A stretch of DNA of 64,000 nt. It comes from a virus. The notes beneath the pieces are model-generated. The model worked only from the letters and a program-made list of their open reading frames with translations. It was not told where the DNA came from and did no database searches. The stretch is taken from positions 1-64,000 of the IMG/VR virus record IMGVR_UViG_3300022689_000130. One strand, written 5' to 3'. The position numbers and the translations under genes are program-made. The number at the start of each line of letters is the position of its first letter. Positions within the stretch are counted from its first letter, which is position 1. Positions 17,799 through 52,154 of the stretch are shown in pieces.

Positions 17799-18239
17799 TT
17801 ATCTTCTAAATGGCGAGCGCTGTCCTGGATACCAAAATTCGCCATTGAGGATATCTTCGATATATTCCTCGAGCTGCTCCTGTTTCATATCGAGTTCTTG
17901 TGACAAAATATAGTCAGCAATCATCTTACTATATTTTTGACTTTTACCCAAATGGCCCAGGTGTGCTGAGACAAGCATTCTTACATATTTCTCGTCTTGG
18001 TTGGTAAAATACTTTTGCTCATAAGCTTCATCCATAAATGCTGATTCAGCTAATTCTTTAATCTGGCCCATAGCTGCCATGATCGCTGATTGAACACCTT
18101 CTTCAACGTCATCATCTAGTCTCATACCTGGAATTTGTTCAAGCAATCCTTCAAGATGTTCTATAATATCACTTACATCATTACCTGTTGATTCTTGAAC
18201 TTTTGTTCCAGCTAGTTGTCGTAGTCTGTTAATGTCCAT
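17799..18239 (-). CDS. Acidic protein with RLxxLAG leader (putative internal head protein)
   Basis: Starts MDINRLRQLAGTKVQE. Confidence 0.7.
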   Translation of the reverse strand: MDINRLRQLAGTKVQESTGNDVSDIIEHLEGLLEQIPGMRLDDDVEEGVQSAIMAAMGQIKELAESAFMDEAYEQKYFTNQDEKYVRMLVSAHLGHLGKSQKYSKMIADYILSQELDMKQEQLEEYIEDILNGEFWYPGQRSPFRR

Positions 18240-18243
18240 TTGG

Positions 18244-18555
18244 TTACTCCGGGTTATGTGGAATGCTCGTATTCGCTTTTGGTCTTATTTCATAATCAGT
18301 ACAGCCAGCCAATACGCTATTGTTACGAAATTTCTTATCATAACGTCCGACTCGCTTAGATCTAAGCATGACACGATCGACGTATGCTCTGGCTGCTTCT
18401 TCACTATCAAACGTAGCTACCACTTGTTCATCTGTGTTTGTTTCACCAGTATAACCACCATAGCCATATTCGGGTTCGTCAGTGATTCCAACCAGCTCAT
18501 AAATCTCTCCACTTTCACGAATGCCAGAAAGTGATTTTAGTCTACCAATATCCAC
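18244..18555 (-). CDS. Protein with RLxxLSG leader (putative internal head protein)
   Basis: Starts MDIGRLKSLSGIRE (GTG start). Confidence 0.7.
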   Translation of the reverse strand: MDIGRLKSLSGIRESGEIYELVGITDEPEYGYGGYTGETNTDEQVVATFDSEEAARAYVDRVMLRSKRVGRYDKKFRNNSVLAGCTDYEIRPKANTSIPHNPE

Positions 18556-18556
18556 C

Positions 18557-18889
18557 TTACCATCCTCTACGTAGATCTGAACGACGATCCATTTCAGTGT
18601 CGCCAGCGTCTAGATCGTCGAAATAATCAGGATCTAGGTCATCGTCCTCATCTTCATCTTCGTCACCATATAGATCATCTTCACCTGTTGGTAGCTCGTT
18701 TGCGTGGGCCATGTCACGAACATCATCTTTACTCATATATTTGAGGCAAGCATCTGCGACTGTGCGTGGATCAAGAATGCCTTCATCCATCATGGTGTGT
18801 AGTGCATTGGTTACCTGACGTACGTCTTCTTCAATCTCGACCGATTCGTTGAGTATACCTGCTAGTTGTTGTAGTCTGTTAATATCCAT
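18557..18889 (-). CDS. Acidic protein with RLxxLAG leader (putative internal head protein)
   Basis: Starts MDINRLQQLAGILNE. Confidence 0.7.
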   Translation of the reverse strand: MDINRLQQLAGILNESVEIEEDVRQVTNALHTMMDEGILDPRTVADACLKYMSKDDVRDMAHANELPTGEDDLYGDEDEDEDDDLDPDYFDDLDAGDTEMDRRSDLRRGW

Positions 18890-18904
18890 ATCTTTTCTCT
18901 CTAA

Positions 18905-19216
18905 TTACACTGATTCAACACTACCGAGCGTATCAATTGCTTCATCTGGCAAGAAAAACTCTTCTTTTTCTCCAATGAGAGTGTTATAAATCAAAATAGT
19001 CATACCACCAGCTGCTCGTACGCCAATAATATTTCCTCTATCATTTAATACAATGGTATCGGGTATTTCATTTTCTTGTGGTCCAAGAACAGGCTGGCCT
19101 CTGCGTCCTTTATTACGCTCGATCCCTGCTTCAGTGCTTGCGTCAAAACCCTCAAAAAGATTGGTTTTGTGTGTATCATTCATTCCAGAAAGTTGTCTTA
19201 ATCTATCGATATCCAT
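18905..19216 (-). CDS. Protein with RLxxLSG leader (putative internal head protein)
   Basis: Start reassigned to MDIDRLRQLSG...NLFE. Confidence 0.7.
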   Translation of the reverse strand: MDIDRLRQLSGMNDTHKTNLFEGFDASTEAGIERNKGRRGQPVLGPQENEIPDTIVLNDRGNIIGVRAAGGMTILIYNTLIGEKEEFFLPDEAIDTLGSVESV

Positions 19217-19224
19217 TAATTTCC

Positions 19225-19845
19225 CTACCAGTAAATTTCCCACTTGATAACTGATGTGTCACTGTCAGTGTTTTTCTTTGCCAGGATGCTGTAACCAAGT
19301 CCTTGAAAATGATTAACAACCTGTGACAATTCATATGATTTCTTACGATCTTCATTTACACCTAACCAAACCTGATAGTATTCAACTGATTCTGGGTTGG
19401 TTGCATCGTAGGTCTGTGCTGTTATACCAACAGTTGCATTAGCAGAATCTGCACTAACAATAAGGTTCCATCCATTCTGTGGAGTTTCGTATGTGAGGAC
19501 TAGTTGATTGCTCGCGTTTTTGCTGGCTACTAAGCCTGCTGGACCATCATCGTTTATGATTCCGATAATTTGATTTAAGTCAGAGTTTGCTGGCAATGAT
19601 ATAGTAGTGGCTGCAATTGTCAATGATTCACCCGTGACACCAACAGTTGGATTAGCTTCTGTGCCAGTAATAGTAATGACTGGTGTGCTTTCTGTCATCG
19701 TTGTACCGTTATCAACAGTAGCAGTTAGGTTTCCTAACAGCGCCTGTTCCATGATTTTACGCTGGATTGCGTCAATCTCGTTGTAAATTACAAGATCTGA
19801 TGTTGATAACTGTCGCGCCTCAGGCCCTGTTAGCTCATATGTCAT
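19225..19845 (-). CDS. Probable virion structural protein
   Basis: 206 aa, Thr/Ala-rich insert, in late gene cluster. Confidence 0.55.
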   Translation of the reverse strand: MTYELTGPEARQLSTSDLVIYNEIDAIQRKIMEQALLGNLTATVDNGTTMTESTPVITITGTEANPTVGVTGESLTIAATTISLPANSDLNQIIGIINDDGPAGLVASKNASNQLVLTYETPQNGWNLIVSADSANATVGITAQTYDATNPESVEYYQVWLGVNEDRKKSYELSQVVNHFQGLGYSILAKKNTDSDTSVIKWEIYW

Positions 19846-20180
19846 TGATCATCCCCTAGGTCTTTTGTTGCTTGGTCAGTAGCTAGATTATCGACACGGT
19901 CTTGTTCAATCTCATCTGCGTCCTGGCCTACCATTTGGTCAGCATCGCTAGTTGCAATTAAAATTTCATCTTCAGTTGCAGTACTCACAATTTCTATTGT
20001 TTGAAGTAGTTCTAGTAAGCTCTGCTTGTCAACTGCAAAACCTTGTAATTCTAAATCACGTAGCAAATTATTAGTGCCAACATTTTTGATACCTTCTGCG
20101 CTTATGGCTGTAAGCAGAGTGATTACCTCTGAACGGAGATCATCATTGTATTCACTCTCTATCAGGTCTCTTAGGCGCAT
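19842..20180 (-). CDS. Acidic protein with N-terminal tag
   Basis: Starts MRLRDLIESE. Confidence 0.7.
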   Translation of the reverse strand: MRLRDLIESEYNDDLRSEVITLLTAISAEGIKNVGTNNLLRDLELQGFAVDKQSLLELLQTIEIVSTATEDEILIATSDADQMVGQDADEIEQDRVDNLATDQATKDLGDDQ

Positions 20181-20923
20181 TAGATCTCGTCTTTTATCTC
20201 GCGGCCTGTTGGCTCATCACCGCCTATAGCAGTATCATCTCCAGCAAACTCATCATCAGCATCATCGTCGACACTGTCCATGTCACTCATGTCACTCATG
20301 TCATCCATGTCAGGCTCATTGCCCATGTCATCCATATCGCCACCTTCAAGGTCGTCACCGTCCATGTCGAAGTTGTCCATGTCTGTAGCTGGTTCATGGC
20401 CCTGCGCTGCGCTGATTGCATCATCATATTGGTCTTTTGCATTCTTGAGTGCGTCAACAAGACCTGCGAGTGCCATGTCTGCCGCGTCAGAATATGCTTC
20501 AGCTTCGTCTGCACCAAGTTCACTCTTCATTGCATCCACAATTGGTATTAGATCCTGCACTTGCATCTTTGCAGCATCTTCAATCATGCCCTGGATTTTG
20601 TCACTTAGTTCTTTGGCAGCAAGGATAACTTTTGCCTCTTCCATACTATCGTCATCGAGACCTTCAGCAACCATGTTAGTTAGCTCAGTCTGAATATTTG
20701 CCTCAAACCAAAGGTCGAGACTTTCTGCAATCATGCTAAGTTTGATACGTTTGTTGATATCTTTATTTTCTTCAACCATTTCGCGCGCTCTTGCAGCCAT
20801 AAGCTTTGCACGATCAGCAGTCATGTCGTCGAAATTAAGATTATAGTCATAATTTTCTTTAAGTGCTTGGGTTAACTTGTCAAGCTTTGTTGACCCGCGT
20901 GTAGTAAATTCGTTCAGAATCAT
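20180..20923 (-). CDS. Probable prohead core/scaffold-like protein
   Basis: Helical, very acidic DM-rich C-terminus, starts MILNE. Confidence 0.5.
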   Translation of the reverse strand: MILNEFTTRGSTKLDKLTQALKENYDYNLNFDDMTADRAKLMAARAREMVEENKDINKRIKLSMIAESLDLWFEANIQTELTNMVAEGLDDDSMEEAKVILAAKELSDKIQGMIEDAAKMQVQDLIPIVDAMKSELGADEAEAYSDAADMALAGLVDALKNAKDQYDDAISAAQGHEPATDMDNFDMDGDDLEGGDMDDMGNEPDMDDMSDMSDMDSVDDDADDEFAGDDTAIGGDEPTGREIKDEI

Positions 20924-20969: not shown

Positions 20970-21593
20970 TTACAAAGCCTTTAGTAATTTGAGCTTTGCT
21001 GCGCCCAGCTTGGTTTTTGCATTTGAATATTTTGCTGTAATGACGTCGTATTGAACTTCGCTCTCATCTAGACGTGCTAAACGTTGTTTATGACTATATA
21101 TTTCCATCATAGCGCCAACATACTCTTGGTCTAGGTCAAGAATGCGTTTCACCTTTCGCTCGTCTTCAGTAAAAAGCATGTGCTTAACAACGCCCATGGC
21201 TGTTTCAAATAGTCCGAGGTCTTCGTGCACCATTTCCCCCGTTCGGTTATCAACAATATAGTAAAATGTCTTCTTGATTCCTTCTTGCATCGGTTTCTTT
21301 TCGGTTCGAATATCGTAGCGGCTGACGCTTACGCCATTATCCGTGCGTTGTGTGTTTATTGCAACACCTAGATCTGGGTTTTTCTTGCTTTCTGATACGA
21401 TCGTTTCTGAGAATACTCCTGTTGCCTCTTGCAACCTTGCTAGCACATCGTGCATTGCGGCTGTTTCTGAATTTGATGATTCGGAATTTTGTGTAAGAGT
21501 CGATTCTTCTCTGTCGTCTGTCATTTCATTTGTAGCAGCATTCATCTTGCCAAGAATCGCTGCCATTGCGTCAGTTTGATCTTGGTTTGTCAT
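20970..21593 (-). CDS. Hypothetical protein
   Basis: 207 aa; repeated AM..IL.(K/R) helices; GGAGG SD. Confidence 0.75.
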   Translation of the reverse strand: MTNQDQTDAMAAILGKMNAATNEMTDDREESTLTQNSESSNSETAAMHDVLARLQEATGVFSETIVSESKKNPDLGVAINTQRTDNGVSVSRYDIRTEKKPMQEGIKKTFYYIVDNRTGEMVHEDLGLFETAMGVVKHMLFTEDERKVKRILDLDQEYVGAMMEIYSHKQRLARLDESEVQYDVITAKYSNAKTKLGAAKLKLLKAL

Positions 21594-21753
21594 TGGTTTC
21601 TTCCTCCTGATAATACATTTGGTTCATTGCTGCTAATGTCTCTAATAGAGACTGTTCGGTTAAGTCCATGCAGCTTGTACAAGGTAACCCTACGATATCG
21701 CTTCCCATGAATCTGCTACCGCACTTGGGGCAAGTCTGTTCGACCGGTATCAT
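21571..21753 (-). CDS. Small zinc-ribbon-like protein
   Basis: CPKC...CTSC. Confidence 0.55.
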   Translation of the reverse strand: MIPVEQTCPKCGSRFMGSDIVGLPCTSCMDLTEQSLLETLAAMNQMYYQEEETNDKPRSN

Positions 21754-21999
21754 TTAGAATCCTTGGTTGATGTTGCGCTTGTAGTAAATTCCGCGATCAC
21801 CGTCACTGAATCTTTGTAGAATACCTCTACTAGTTAGCACTTTGGCCATCTCTGCTTGGCGTTCATCCATCTCATCCTTGTAGGCAGTCTCGTTAATTGT
21901 GTTAAGGAAATTGTATTCCTCGCTGGATACAAAAGTTGGTATACCGCCTTTTGTTACAACAGATCTCATTATGCTATTCCTGCCCGGCGCTTGAGCCAC
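21754..21999 (-). CDS. Hypothetical protein
   Basis: ORF in operon; true start probably MRSVVTK at 21969. Confidence 0.7.
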   Translation of the reverse strand: MAQAPGRNSIMRSVVTKGGIPTFVSSEEYNFLNTINETAYKDEMDERQAEMAKVLTSRGILQRFSDGDRGIYYKRNINQGF

Positions 22000-23762
22000 T
22001 CTTGCATTTGGATGACTTTTTGTTCCGGATTTTCGTAACGATGTTCGAAATACATGTCCAAATCAACGCCATATTCTTTAGCTAGCTCTTTTGCTTGAGA
22101 TAGGATTTCCCATTCGTCTTCATGGCTCATACCAGCCATAGCTGCTTGGTAGCGGTCGGCCATGTCGCGGATAATTGATTCAGCACCACTTTTGTCTAGC
22201 TTTTCTTCATACATGTCCTTGAATCCAGCGGCACCCAAAGCATAGTCTACATCTTCACGGTTGGTGGCGCGCATGTCAGGCTCACGTAGTATGTCCTCAA
22301 TATCACTCATGTCCACACTGTCTGGATAGCTCTGGCGGATGCGGTTTGCAAGGCGCTCAAGTGATGCTAGGTGTTCATCGTCTGCTATCTGTAGCAATGC
22401 ACGAATGACTTCTTTTGAGTTCCACTGCTCACCTGATCCTTCGTTTATTGATTCATCTTTGTAACCCAAATCGTCATGCAAGTGATCATATTCGTCATCG
22501 CCATAATGGCGACGTAGATCATTCTCTTCTTCGTCACTGTCAGCATAGTCGTTGAGATCAAGTTCATGTGGTTCAAAGTCCATTGCGAAATCATGATTGT
22601 AAAGGCGAACAGTTACACTATTAGGACGTGCTGACATAACTATACCGGTTTCGCCTTCCCATTCGCCGCTCGTAACAATGACGTCATCATTATGATCAAA
22701 GGAACCCTTCTTTGCTTCATGGACCGGATCCATGCCATGTTCCTTAGCAATGTCAATTGTGGTTTTGATAAGTTCATCCATGGTGCGGTAAACGTTGTCT
22801 TTGTTTTGACGGAGAGCTCTGTCGGCTTCGGCAAGGACACTTTCAACATCATTCAAATCAACGTCCCACAAGTCAACAATTCGATCATAAACGAAAACAA
22901 CCGCTGATGTCATGAACCCGTCATACACATAGCTGAATCCATATTCTGTGTTTTTCCAGTTGTCAAACAGTGGTCCCCAGCCAGCCTTTTCCATTGCTTG
23001 CTTAAAGACTTGGTAAGGCTTCTTTTTCTTGTGCATTGAATAATCAAGTGGGCCCTCTTTAAGAGGATAGCCAGCTAGTTCAGCAATACGATTAATTTCT
23101 GCAATTGATTCGTCTTTATACATTAGTTTTGCGTTTGCTGCGTCAGCTTCATCATCATAAACGTCATCATATGAATCAATCTCAGACTGTGCATGAGCAT
23201 ATCCATCATTCCACTCTTCATGTTCTTCAGTACCCTCAGGGTATGGATTTAAATCATCAAATCCATTACCAGTATAAGCACGGTGACCTTCCCAGTAAGG
23301 CCCTTCCATTCCATCTGATTCTTCAACGGGTTGATCATCTTGCATCACTGCATCTGGATCGTCTTCACTGTCAACGTTCTGTGTGCTTACGCCGTTTTGC
23401 ACACCGCCACTGTAATTGCTGCTCTGTGCTGTCTTTGATTGGCTCGACTGATCTCTTGCTGGTGCTTTTTTGGTTTTATTAGGGGCAGGGCGGGTTGCGG
23501 CGGCGCTGGTTGGTTTACGTGGCGAACTGTTACCCATGCTATATTCTAATTGTGGCAGCGGACCAAGTATTGCACTTACCTCGGCGCGATCGCCTGCTGT
23601 ATATGCATCGTTAAGAGCCAGAATATCGCTTAAACTCAAACGATCAACAATCTCATCAAGCTGAGGTTCATCAAGCTCTTCATGAAACATCGTATTTACC
23701 ATGTTTTGAATTGCGTCATGTAACGTGCTGTTTGTTTTGTCTATTGATTCAAAAAGTTTCAT
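21969..23762 (-). CDS. Modular acidic polyprotein-like protein with RMF-like and KOW modules
   Basis: MKLFE start; modules separated by hydrophobic-x-E sites; internal RIAELAG and C-terminal WLKRRAGI. Confidence 0.6.
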   Translation of the reverse strand: MKLFESIDKTNSTLHDAIQNMVNTMFHEELDEPQLDEIVDRLSLSDILALNDAYTAGDRAEVSAILGPLPQLEYSMGNSSPRKPTSAAATRPAPNKTKKAPARDQSSQSKTAQSSNYSGGVQNGVSTQNVDSEDDPDAVMQDDQPVEESDGMEGPYWEGHRAYTGNGFDDLNPYPEGTEEHEEWNDGYAHAQSEIDSYDDVYDDEADAANAKLMYKDESIAEINRIAELAGYPLKEGPLDYSMHKKKKPYQVFKQAMEKAGWGPLFDNWKNTEYGFSYVYDGFMTSAVVFVYDRIVDLWDVDLNDVESVLAEADRALRQNKDNVYRTMDELIKTTIDIAKEHGMDPVHEAKKGSFDHNDDVIVTSGEWEGETGIVMSARPNSVTVRLYNHDFAMDFEPHELDLNDYADSDEEENDLRRHYGDDEYDHLHDDLGYKDESINEGSGEQWNSKEVIRALLQIADDEHLASLERLANRIRQSYPDSVDMSDIEDILREPDMRATNREDVDYALGAAGFKDMYEEKLDKSGAESIIRDMADRYQAAMAGMSHEDEWEILSQAKELAKEYGVDLDMYFEHRYENPEQKVIQMQEWLKRRAGIA

Positions 23763-24043
23763 TTGTTGAGTGCCTTTACCATTTTGCTCGCCGGATTTGT
23801 ACGTTTGGTCCTTTGGGCTTTTCGCGCCATACGGCTGCCTTTCTGAGCCTTTGTTCTACGCAAAGTAAAGCGTTTTTTCATATCTACCGGTTTACTGCAT
23901 TGACTCGGATCACTTACTACGCGGCCTTTTCTTTTGCCGAATGTGCAACGATATTTTCGAGCGATTTTTCCACCCTTACGTGCCCAAACCATTTTGGTCT
24001 CAACCAAGCTGTCGCCCTCATTTAAGATTTCATACATCTTCAT
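23759..24043 (-). CDS. Highly basic protein with N-terminal tag
   Basis: Start reassigned to MKMYEILNEG; K/R-rich; RC..GKRKGRVVS...C. Confidence 0.75.
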   Translation of the reverse strand: MKMYEILNEGDSLVETKMVWARKGGKIARKYRCTFGKRKGRVVSDPSQCSKPVDMKKRFTLRRTKAQKGSRMARKAQRTKRTNPASKMVKALNK

Positions 24044-50919: not shown

Positions 50920-51459
50920 TTACTCCTGAGGAAGGTGGACCCTCGCATAATAGTCTGCTTCTTCAAGAGCACGATAAAGATCTTCAAGTGCCTTGCGGAC
51001 TTCATGCAAGCCTGATGGATCTCCACCAATTGACTTGATTGACTTCTCCATAAACCCACCACGCTTGTAGGTATTTTCTAGACGCTCAACCAATTCCATG
51101 TGCTTACCCATATGCTGTTGAATGCCTTCGCCAGTAGCTTCATTTACACGGTTTTCTGGAAATGCCTCTGATACTTTGTGTTGTGGATCATGACGATCTT
51201 CCATACCTGGCTTAAATTCAAATTCATCACCATCGTCACCTACTGCATACCAAGCACCTTCAGTCCAATCACCACTGTCAGTTAGTGGTTTTCCTTCTTC
51301 CCATTCAAGATTCCAACCAAGGCCACGATAGGTAATACTGTCACCTTCAGTGTAAGTGCCATCTGTCCATTTATCATCAACCATTTGTGCTCGAGACATT
51401 TTTTCACAGATTGCTACTCGAGGCAATCCAGCTAGTTCACGTAGACGACGACTTGACAT
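50920..51459 (-). CDS. Protein with RLxxLAG leader (putative internal head protein)
   Basis: Starts MSSRRLRELAG; internal ICE, VSE, VNE sites. Confidence 0.7.
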   Translation of the reverse strand: MSSRRLRELAGLPRVAICEKMSRAQMVDDKWTDGTYTEGDSITYRGLGWNLEWEEGKPLTDSGDWTEGAWYAVGDDGDEFEFKPGMEDRHDPQHKVSEAFPENRVNEATGEGIQQHMGKHMELVERLENTYKRGGFMEKSIKSIGGDPSGLHEVRKALEDLYRALEEADYYARVHLPQE

Positions 51460-52154
51460 TATTTCTTCCCCTTGAAGTTTTTGTATTCACGGAGCATACT
51501 TTCTTCAGTGTGGTCTTCTTCGATTTTTACTGGCATCGCGTCCGCATCCAAATAACGACGAAGGCTGAGATCTACTGTTTCACCGTCTGGCTGCTCTTGA
51601 TAGTGTCCACGATCATCATATTGCTTATAGATCGAATTGGCCCACTCACGCATTGTCTGTGCTTCAGTATTGCTTGCTTCGTCTGCCTTTTCTTTGTCCT
51701 TAGCAGCTTTTTTCATGCTTTCTTTTTCATCACCATCGCCATCAATGTCAGCAAAATCCGGTTTGCTTTCTTCAAGACTTTGTTCGCTTATCTGCATGAT
51801 CTCTGGCTTTGCATTTGCAGTTGGATCTTTGAACCGACTGAAAATTGCACGAGCAATTGCGCGAGCTTCATTTTTTGAACTGGTAGTAACAATCAGCTCT
51901 TCATTAGCCCAACCAATATCATCATATTTAAATCCCTGGCTTGAAAGGTAATCATAAACCTTGTCACTCACGTCACGCAATGTGCGCATAGTGACTTTCC
52001 ATCCTTCGCTTTCAGTTAATGTGCGATTTGATTCCATAAGACTATTACGAATCTCATACATATTCTTTCGTGATTGGTCTGCAACATATTGCAGAGCAGG
52101 CGCATTACCTGCTAGCTGACGCAGTCTATCTAATGTATTCTTATCCATTGTCAT
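51459..52154 (-). CDS. Protein with RLxxLAG leader (putative prohead core protein)
   Basis: DRLRQLAG; LME/LTE/LEE sites; KPDFADIDGDGDEKESMKKA motif. Confidence 0.7.
   Translation of the reverse strand: MTMDKNTLDRLRQLAGNAPALQYVADQSRKNMYEIRNSLMESNRTLTESEGWKVTMRTLRDVSDKVYDYLSSQGFKYDDIGWANEELIVTTSSKNEARAIARAIFSRFKDPTANAKPEIMQISEQSLEESKPDFADIDGDGDEKESMKKAAKDKEKADEASNTEAQTMREWANSIYKQYDDRGHYQEQPDGETVDLSLRRYLDADAMPVKIEEDHTEESMLREYKNFKGKK

Follow-up and report, generated by a model that had tools for sequence, protein, structure and literature searches.

This work concerns P0001, a protein of 597 amino acids (aa) that is encoded on the minus strand of a viral contig from IMG/VR (IMGVR_UViG_3300022689_000130). 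The stretch analysed, referred to as the window, consists of 64,000 nucleotides (nt), which are the first 64 kb of this 144,664-bp contig. Comparison of P0001 with its relatives gives good support for a predicted modular polyprotein with interchangeable cassettes. P0001 is read here as a putative head-internal cargo polyprotein of a jumbo phage with a T4-type core that would be packaged and cut, and a probability of about 0.6 is given to this reading. We infer its packaging, cleavage and injection from the findings that are described below.

The contig is of jumbo phage origin, as it is only 39% complete by CheckV at this length, and the phage was placed in the PA5oct/RaK2/Atu_ph07 group of T4-type jumbo phages. 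The genome encodes a prohead protease of the T4 gp21 family (Peptidase_S77, 77.9 bits; phrog_207, E 9e-57). Its head module is in T4 order and consists of the portal, a 68-aa protein, an acidic 277-aa protein, the protease, a 374-aa protein, and the Gp23-type major capsid protein (MCP). The genome therefore has both the gp21-family protease and the T4-type head module that are expected where T4-type cargo is packaged.

In the proposed mechanism, the N-terminal module (residues 1-148) and a C-terminal peptide that resembles the scaffold tail would bring P0001 into the assembling prohead, where the P0001 tail would probably bind at the site of the scaffold tail. The gp21-type protease would then cut after E148, E222, E236, E349, E441, E519, and perhaps E73. 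This cleavage would remove the tags and free five small acidic domains (one of RMF fold, one of unknown fold, one KOW-type barrel, and two helical domains). Related phages carry other sets and orders of cassettes at the same locus, and the same cassettes are also found in other tagged carriers. The freed pieces might be delivered along with the DNA, as anti-host factors, or be expelled while the DNA is packaged. The precedent is T4, where loading is directed by the capsid targeting sequence (CTS) and gp21 cleaves after Glu (PMC3012670, PMC5694885, PMC9026906).

Architecture, family and junctions of P0001

An earlier reading of the letters alone (the sequence-only reading) had described a 597-aa open reading frame (ORF) at 21969-23762, which is present on the minus strand. 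The parts of P0001 are given below, where a slash denotes a putative cut and pLDDT is the predicted local distance difference test score.

21969..23762, minus strand: whole ORF of P0001, 597 aa, in the order N1-N2-A-tag-B-K-C1-C2-T
23544..23762, minus strand: N1 (residues 1-73), conserved helical bundle with the invariant MKLFE start, end at QLE73/YSMG, pLDDT 79-90
23319..23543, minus strand: N2 (residues 74-148), conserved disordered segment with the motifs YSMG, RPAP, and NYSGGVQNGV, end at E-P-[IV]-x-E148
23097..23318, minus strand: cassette A (residues 149-222), acidic RMF/CrpP-like helix-loop-helix and then a linker ...LMYKDESIAE222
23187-23300, minus strand: RMF-like core of cassette A (residues 155-192)
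23055..23096, minus strand: internal class-2 tag (residues 223-236), INRIAELAGYPLKE, flanked by IAE222/ and LKE236/, identified by motif scan
22716..23054, minus strand: cassette B (residues 237-349), ends at VHE349, pLDDT 50-60 (low confidence)
22440..22715, minus strand: cassette K (residues 350-441), KOW/SH3-like beta-barrel, acidic helices, and a linker ...LGYKDESINE441
22548-22703, minus strand: barrel of cassette K (residues 354-405)
22206..22439, minus strand: cassette C1 (residues 442-519), small helical domain, ends at ...DMYE519
22038..22205, minus strand: cassette C2 (residues 520-575), helical domain
21972..22037, minus strand: T (residues 576-597), C-terminal tag ...VIQMQEWLKRRAGIA, of the peptide type that also ends the scaffold-position protein

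The six segment ends that the sequence-only reading had named (QLE73, VEE148, IAE222, LKE236, VHE349, and INE441) are all found at these positions. The linker that it had called duplicated consists of YKDESIAE (residues 215-222) and YKDESINE (residues 434-441), and in the DNA only a 17-nt repeat with 88% identity corresponds to it. The nucleotide ranges that had been given for the RMF-like and KOW-like stretches agree with residues 155-192 and 355-402.

The homologs of P0001 were identified using a word-indexed search, which gave 18 sequences, and an exhaustive HMMER search, which gave 74 representative relatives that are all metagenomic. Residues 1-148 are common to 57 of the 74 relatives, with M1, K2, L3, E5, E73, Y74, and E148 invariant, and N1 is found in nearly all family members. 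At the other end, 52 collected sequences terminate in ...[NV][IV][IV]-x-M-x-x-W-L-K-R-R-A-G-I-x. No Pfam or PHROG family was assigned to P0001 as a whole, and no paralogs of the N-module or the cassettes were found elsewhere in the contig.

The modules of P0001 were mapped onto all family members to obtain their architectures. P0001 exhibits N-A-B-K-C1-C2-T. P0002 exhibits N-K-B-T, where the order of K and B is reversed so that cassette B is placed after K rather than before it. P0003 exhibits N-K-C1-C2-T and P0008 exhibits N-C1-K-T, while P0021 and P0022 are reduced to N-C2-T and N-C1-T, respectively. The minimal architecture N-T is exhibited by P0028 (162 aa). C1 is the most widespread cargo cassette of the family, and the internal class-2 tag of P0001 stands before other cassettes in P0003 and P0004.

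The length of the family members spans 162 to 818 aa at one locus. Four loci are strictly syntenic and the family member alone varies between them (359, 404, 437, and 597 aa). The flank before it consists of an NTase-like protein of 302-306 aa, a DUF6267 protein of 365-369 aa, and proteins of 145, about 235, 137, 98, and 94 aa. The flank past it consists of proteins of 71-81, about 60, about 200, about 242, and 112 aa. The putative cargo is thus hypervariable at a conserved locus, as is expected of T4-type cargo. The orthologs are not colinear without indels, since the family member alone changes length in the syntenic loci. They gain, lose, and reorder cassettes at conserved hydrophobic-x-Glu junctions, where the sequence-only reading had expected such changes.

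The junctions were compared with the places where the alignments of 19 homologs break, and a breakpoint was counted when at least two ends of high-scoring segment pairs supported it. The BLAST breakpoints fall exactly on [LIVM]-x-E 12 times (2.9 expected) and within 3 residues of it 49 times (19.8 expected). The junction columns were then taken only from homologs whose alignment reaches the given junction of P0001. At E148, P1 is Glu in 29/31 homologs and P3 is hydrophobic in 27/31. At E441, both hold in 7/7. At E519 (...DMYE/E), a junction that is absent from the list of the sequence-only reading, both hold in 15/17. Glu at P1 and the hydrophobic residue at P3 are kept irrespective of the segment that follows, and the residue at P1' is in most cases S, G, T, A, or E. 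Many members also have a site a few residues before the C-terminal tag (...KDES[IV]-x-E/ or ...EQVEE/T). The junctions of P0001 fit the published rule that gp21 and its relatives in giant phages cut on the C-terminal side of a Glu at the end of a short motif, in many cases at several places in one substrate (PMC5694885, PMC9026906).

The class-2 tag and the scaffold-position protein

In the proteins of the contig there are 8 copies of the class-2 tag motif [RW][LI]xx[LR][AS]G, where 0.5 is expected. Six of the eight copies are at the N-terminus or within a dozen residues of it (MDINRLRQLAG..., MSSRRLRELAG..., and MTMDKNTLDRLRQLAG...), and most of these are followed by a hydrophobic-x-E site 3-12 residues later. 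The other two copies are in P0001, namely INRIAELAG at residues 223-231, with the motif at 225-231, and WLKRRAG at residues 589-595 of the C-terminus.

The same peptide ends the protein that is encoded in the gene-22 position of this phage. This scaffold-position protein and the protease are encoded outside the window on the same contig as follows.

G000:C1:73473-74108, minus strand: prohead protease
G000:C1:72346-73470 (also L001:236-1360), minus strand: 374-aa helical scaffold-position protein (phrog_10922), between the protease and the MCP

The scaffold-position protein matches 94 cultured phages. It scores best against PA5oct-like Pseudomonas phages, at 44% identity, and next against Atu_ph07, a Vibrio jumbo phage, GAP32, and RaK2. 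One record labels it as a scaffolding protein, and in several of PA5oct, Atu_ph07, Vibrio phage 2.275.O, and RaK2 it is labelled 'hypothetical' or 'Rad50 ATPase'. The scaffold-position protein of this phage ends in ...DIIELKKLAGLS, so that the P0001 tail ...LKRRAGI-x stands against a scaffold-position tail ...LKKLAGLS. The corresponding tail is ...EELRRLAGIK in PA5oct, ...NDLKRLAGIKK in Atu_ph07, ...LDRLTKIAGIRK in Vibrio phage 2.275.O, and ...EELSILSGIIKK in RaK2. Distant members of the P0001 family end in ...DDLKKKAGIK or ...RIKKLAGL, which are near-identical to the scaffold tails. Since the same peptide ends scaffold-position proteins and family members, the class-2 tag is read as a probable copy of the scaffold tail.

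The C-termini of scaffold proteins commonly bind coat protein, e.g., in P22 gp8. By this analogy, encapsidation through scaffold mimicry is a likely mechanism. We propose tentatively, and with less confidence than in the packaged polyprotein itself, that the scaffold tail peptide might have been co-opted as a portable encapsidation signal that can be N-terminal, internal, or C-terminal, and that it might allow, together with mobile cassettes flanked by sites, a combinatorial loading of payload.

PA5oct gives a link between the class-2 tag and virion proteins, although the sample is small. A total of 93 of its 461 coding sequences have been detected in virions by electrospray ionisation tandem mass spectrometry (MS) (PMC7318152). 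A degenerate scan of the PA5oct genome for [KRQ]-L-A-G-I gave 7 matches, where the reversed sequence that served as control gave 0. The PA5oct scaffold-position protein carries the tag and was not detected by MS in virions, which is expected for a scaffold. EST35_0203 (L015:522-2018), an MS-detected structural protein, starts with MFNINDILRLAGVQAVKE/S and has an internal ...EISKLAGISNVEE/S. Each of its two tag copies is followed by V-x-E/S, an arrangement that may make EST35_0203 a cargo polyprotein of two parts in a phage that is in culture. EST35_0235 (L016:822-1448), which is also an MS-detected structural protein, contains ...DRIKKLAGIS...

P0001 was also considered as the scaffold of the group itself, which is a coiled-coil protein of about 370 aa between the protease and the MCP. 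This was rejected, as P0001 has no PHROG match, is about 50 kb away from the head module, and shares with the phrog_10922 scaffold only the C-terminal peptide.

The N-terminus of the MCP exhibits ...MLRE/SATVGATSAGN, an L-x-E site at the position of the propeptide cleavage in T4 gp23. The MCPs of this phage (G000:C1:71170-72333, minus strand) and of PA5oct (L009:4627-5814) both begin with M-x-x-x-LFE[NS]-W, where L-F-E is identical to the L-F-E of the invariant MKLFE start of the P0001 family. This shared start may be an early protease site or a common targeting element.

Folds and charge of the cassettes, and the rival explanations

The sequence-only reading had called residues 355-402 KOW-like, and this is right at the level of fold. 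The barrel at residues 354-405 was modelled by AlphaFold with pLDDT 87-89, and the top Foldseek matches of the barrel are all KOW domains of Spt5 or NusG. VIA-align gave Z 8.7, 8.2, and 8.0 for Spt5 KOW domains and Z 7.3 for NusG, with root-mean-square deviations (rmsd) of 1.0-2.8 A (1.3 A over 53 residues for the match with Z 8.7). Other SH3-like barrels are slightly below KOW with Z 6-7. The K barrel is thus a five-stranded SH3-like barrel that superposes on KOW. In Pfam it is sub-threshold, where KOW2_Spt5 on residues 350-441 gave E 3.3e-4 and 20.9 bits against a cut-off of 28.9 bits.

The RMF/CrpP-like call for cassette A stands in part. Several weak lines agree on the fold, while every score is below the curated cut-offs. 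No match of RMF (PF04957 / NF011162) on the segment was found in Pfam or NCBIfam at E <= 10 or in a six-frame scan of the genome. Cassette A is disordered in the full-length model, and it forms a helix-loop-helix with core pLDDT 68-89 when folded alone. It is 50% identical over 48 aa (pairwise E 3e-14) to P0076, a free-standing phage protein of 88 aa that gave E 3.1e-5 and 24.4 bits (cut-off 27.9) with Pfam RMF and 15.9 bits (cut-off 40) with NCBIfam RMF. A structural search of the ESM Atlas with residues 149-200 ranked an RMF cluster first (TM 0.81/0.77). Foldseek against the PDB gave only three matches, which are all RMF chains with weak E values (1.3-4.2). In the VIA ranking RMF (4v8g) came third, with a Z of 4.4 that was equalled by unrelated entries. 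The hhalign comparison with E. coli RMF is in the expected register and not significant (E 0.25), no RMF chain was matched when profiles of two or three RMF-like modules were searched against PDB sequences, and a word-indexed search from P0076 gave no further relatives. Cassette A therefore probably has a remote fold of RMF/CrpP type. Fold matches were thus obtained for both modules that the sequence-only reading had named.

P0076 (L004:5001-5267; L005:1686-1952) is encoded among small unknown genes in phage-like contigs, near SprT-like and Pyr_excise genes, and it indicates that acidic proteins of RMF fold also exist as independent phage genes. No fold match was obtained for N1, B, C1, and C2, where the whole-model searches were filled with KOW matches and the ESM Atlas gave generic helical matches for C1.

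The RMF-like core at residues 155-192 has a net charge of -8 and pI 4.2, and P0076 has pI 4.1. The net charge of the whole K cassette is -20, and counting the charged residues of the KOW barrel (about 12 acidic, 2 basic) gives about -10. RMF binds 16S rRNA and induces the 100S ribosome dimers of translational hibernation. E. coli RMF, in contrast to these modules, is a strongly basic protein rich in Lys and Arg, and the core of cassette A is not the strongly basic small protein that defines RMF. The barrel also does not show the nucleic-acid- or ribosome-binding surface of a KOW domain, and no NGN or ribosomal-protein domain was found in P0001 by Pfam and domain scans.

Several findings weigh against the packaged and cut polyprotein. 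All modules of P0001 are acidic (pI 4.1-5.1), as are scaffold and core proteins that leave the head, so that 'effectors for injection' is its weakest step. The count of [LIVM]-x-E in P0001 is 14 compared to 11.9 +/- 3.0 in shuffled sequences. This is not above chance in a protein rich in Glu and Asp, and an enrichment of x-x-E was therefore rejected as evidence. QLE73/Y is non-canonical, with E-Y nearly invariant and the hydrophobic residue at P2 instead of P3, and it could be a variant site or have another role. P0001 has no canonical site between C2 and the C-terminal tag, and the conserved linkers could be flexible spacers instead of cut sites. The MKLFE start, in which L3 and E5 are invariant, consists of 5 residues where the T4 CTS has about 10. 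Matches of the tag in PA5oct are few overall, and two of them (inside ClpA and an ATPase) are probably due to chance. Neither the P0001 protein nor the DNA of its locus matched the INPHARED phage collection, hence the family is known from metagenomes only and has no cultured member.

The rival explanations differ in what becomes of the modules. P0001 might be an accessory scaffold or core protein in the role of T4 gp67, gp68, or gp22, which would be co-assembled and chopped, with the acidic fragments expelled and the cassettes serving as bulk or spacers. The T4 core proteins that are cut and lost from the head share the acidity of all P0001 modules (PMC5694885), the gene is single-copy and strictly syntenic with a conserved N-module, its C-terminus matches the scaffold tail, and the scaffold-position protein of PA5oct was not detected in virions. 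However, a role as filler hardly explains independently folded KOW and RMF-fold domains that are shuffled among three or more unrelated carrier genes, and the turnover from 162 to 818 aa resembles the hypervariable internal-protein loci of T-even phages (PMC3012670, PMC9026906). We consider this role unlikely. It is less probable still, and altogether improbable, that P0001 stays unpackaged in the cytoplasm as a multi-domain protein whose Glu-ending linkers are acidic spacers and whose ...LAGI peptide is an interaction motif with another use. Such a protein would agree with the chance-level site count and with the lack of an assignable PHROG or Pfam family. It would not account for Glu at P1 and the hydrophobic residue at P3 being kept whatever the neighbour, for a tail peptide that is common to scaffold-position proteins across the whole phage group, for tag-bearing PA5oct proteins in virions, or for a gene that sits among genes with virion-protein PHROG matches and CTS-like leaders.

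The sequence-only reading had pointed to host ribosomes and RNA polymerase (RNAP) as targets of the freed RMF-like and KOW-like pieces after injection, through hibernation or control of elongation. Both folds are supported, and a functional link between them is hinted at by P0073, an unrelated metagenomic polyprotein of 501 aa with a thrice-repeated QGVAE/ linker, an RMF-like module (residues about 30-80), and a KOW cassette (residues 376-435), so that P0001 and P0073 both pair the two folds. However, RMF and KOW domains bind rRNA, RNAP, and ribosomes via basic or neutral surfaces whereas both named modules are strongly acidic, and the binding of these modules to ribosomes or RNAP is therefore unlikely. 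The Pfam and NCBIfam searches, the hhalign result, and the lack of NGN or ribosomal-protein context point the same way. The step from fold to ribosome or RNAP effector is not supported, and this is the least probable of the explanations by our estimate. Returning to the cargo polyprotein, its acidic domains could possibly enter with the DNA as anti-defence factors or as decoys that bind proteins, and they could possibly be fragments that are simply lost from the head like the T4 core peptides.

Known systems, cassette traffic and neighbouring genes

In the textbook route of protein loading into the phage head, the T4 CTS, a single protein carries a single tag. T4 IPI, IPII, IPIII, and Alt are loaded via the CTS and processed by gp21 (Mullaney & Black 1996; PMC3012670, PMC9026906). 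The system of P0001 is similar in its T4-type protease and head-gene order, perhaps in short leaders that end in hydrophobic-x-Glu, and in diverse, fast-changing putative cargo behind a conserved targeting element, with very CTS-like leaders in the neighbouring genes. Unlike T4, where each gene encodes one protein with one N-terminal tag, P0001 strings several unrelated domains with internal sites, and its conserved element combines a 148-aa module with a second type of tag, which is placed at the C-terminus and also internally. The T4 cargo is mostly basic whereas that of P0001 is acidic, and the system is known here from sequence comparison.

The giant phages phiKZ, 201phi2-1, and SPN3US also package many proteins and have a gp21-related protease that cuts after Glu at several sites per substrate, including sites within propeptides (Thomas et al. 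2010, 2012; PMC5694885, PMC7411985, PMC10052503). They belong, however, to another lineage, in which the motif is S/A/G-x-E, the protease is S80, and the substrates lose propeptides, and shuffled cassette arrays and a scaffold-tail tag are not described there.

C-terminal peptides of P22 gp8-type scaffolds bind coat, and the cargo-loading peptides of encapsulins dock inside an HK97-fold shell. Like the encapsulin peptides, the tag of P0001 type is found on unrelated putative cargo at either end of the protein. Unlike both, the ...LAGI peptide has no sequence similarity to them, and its binding to the MCP would follow from the conserved scaffold tail only.

Cassette A appears similar to RMF (PF04957) and the CrpP fold in its predicted helix-loop-helix and in the pattern G-[YH]-x-A ... 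[NC]-P-Y ... W-x-G-[WY], and it differs in being below all curated cut-offs, acidic rather than strongly basic, and embedded in a polyprotein. The K barrel has the same five-stranded fold as the KOW domains of Spt5, NusG, and ribosomal proteins and a KOW-like DDVIVTSGEWEGETGIV stretch. It differs in its sub-threshold Pfam score, in Lys positions that have become Glu, in the absence of NGN, and in the strong acidity of its surface. Against it, generic barrels of SH3-like and Tudor type come only slightly below KOW in score.

P0001 would be an extension of the T4 CTS and internal-protein principle. No published description of it was found, nor of the scaffold-tail tag, the cassette polyproteins of this group, or virion RMF-like proteins, in a literature coverage that leaves out most subscription journals and hence gives no proof of absence. 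The locus suggests that T4-core jumbo phages extend the CTS idea with a second type of tag copied from the scaffold tail, with several cargo domains per chain between protease sites, and with exchange of domains between genes and phages. If this is true, the packaged (and possibly injected) proteome of uncultured jumbo phages would be predictable from sequence, the cassettes would be candidate first-wave anti-host or anti-defence factors, and foreign proteins could be loaded into the heads of jumbo phages with the scaffold-tail peptide as an existing tag. PA5oct, a cultured relative with the same tag on virion proteins, would be a practical system for studying the mechanism.

The other tagged genes in the window are as follows.

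23759..24043, minus strand: 94-aa gene directly upstream of P0001, leader MKMYEILNE/GDSLVE/, very basic body, with the stop codon overlapping the start of P0001 (ATGA)
19842..20180, minus strand: 112-aa gene with a class-1 leader, MRLRDLIESEYN...
51459..52154, minus strand: 231-aa gene with a class-2 leader, the MTMDKNTLDRLRQLAG... given above
17799..19216, minus strand: array of genes with the class-2 leader MDI[ND]RL[RQ]QL[AS]G and then a hydrophobic-x-E site, identified by motif scan

Other tagged carriers also contain cassettes K, C1, and A. P0060 and P0079 are homologs of the 112-aa gene (58% identity, E 8e-41) that have acquired an extra K cassette and an R-x-LAGL tag. P0059 is a homolog of the 231-aa gene in which cassettes including C1 are inserted between conserved ends. 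As these homologs gained K or C1, cassettes also move through genes other than the 597-aa one. P0071 consists of a class-2 leader and then a K cassette.

The body of the 94-aa product is extremely basic (KGGKIARKYR...KGRV...RRTKAQKGSRMARKAQRTKR), and orthologs that are also 94 aa are found in the same place in three related contigs. From its sequence, this product looks like a basic internal protein of T4 IPII/IPIII type with a leader close to the T4 CTS. Another neighbour has the CTS-like leader MRLRDLIE/S, and the leaders of these neighbouring genes are clearer as CTS than the MKLFE of P0001. Within the gene array, the gene at 18905-19216 weakly matches an 'internal virion protein' PHROG. 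The T4 late-promoter motif TATAAATA has 3 matches in the window (2.7 expected), none of which is near the 597-aa gene.

The genes immediately downstream of P0001 at 21754-21969 and 21571-21753 (both minus strand) encode proteins of about 71 aa and 60 aa that are both kept in the syntenic loci. The former matches phrog_16215 'virion structural protein' (E 2.5e-14), and the latter is a CxxC...CxxC zinc-ribbon. Further downstream, a 247-aa protein (20180-20923, minus strand) consists of a helical N-terminal half and an acidic tail that is extremely rich in Asp and Met (DMDDMSDMSDMD...). It matches phrog_14154 'virion structural protein' (E 1.4e-16), and the acidic 277-aa protein that adjoins the protease (DADMDADMDADMD...) is similar to it.

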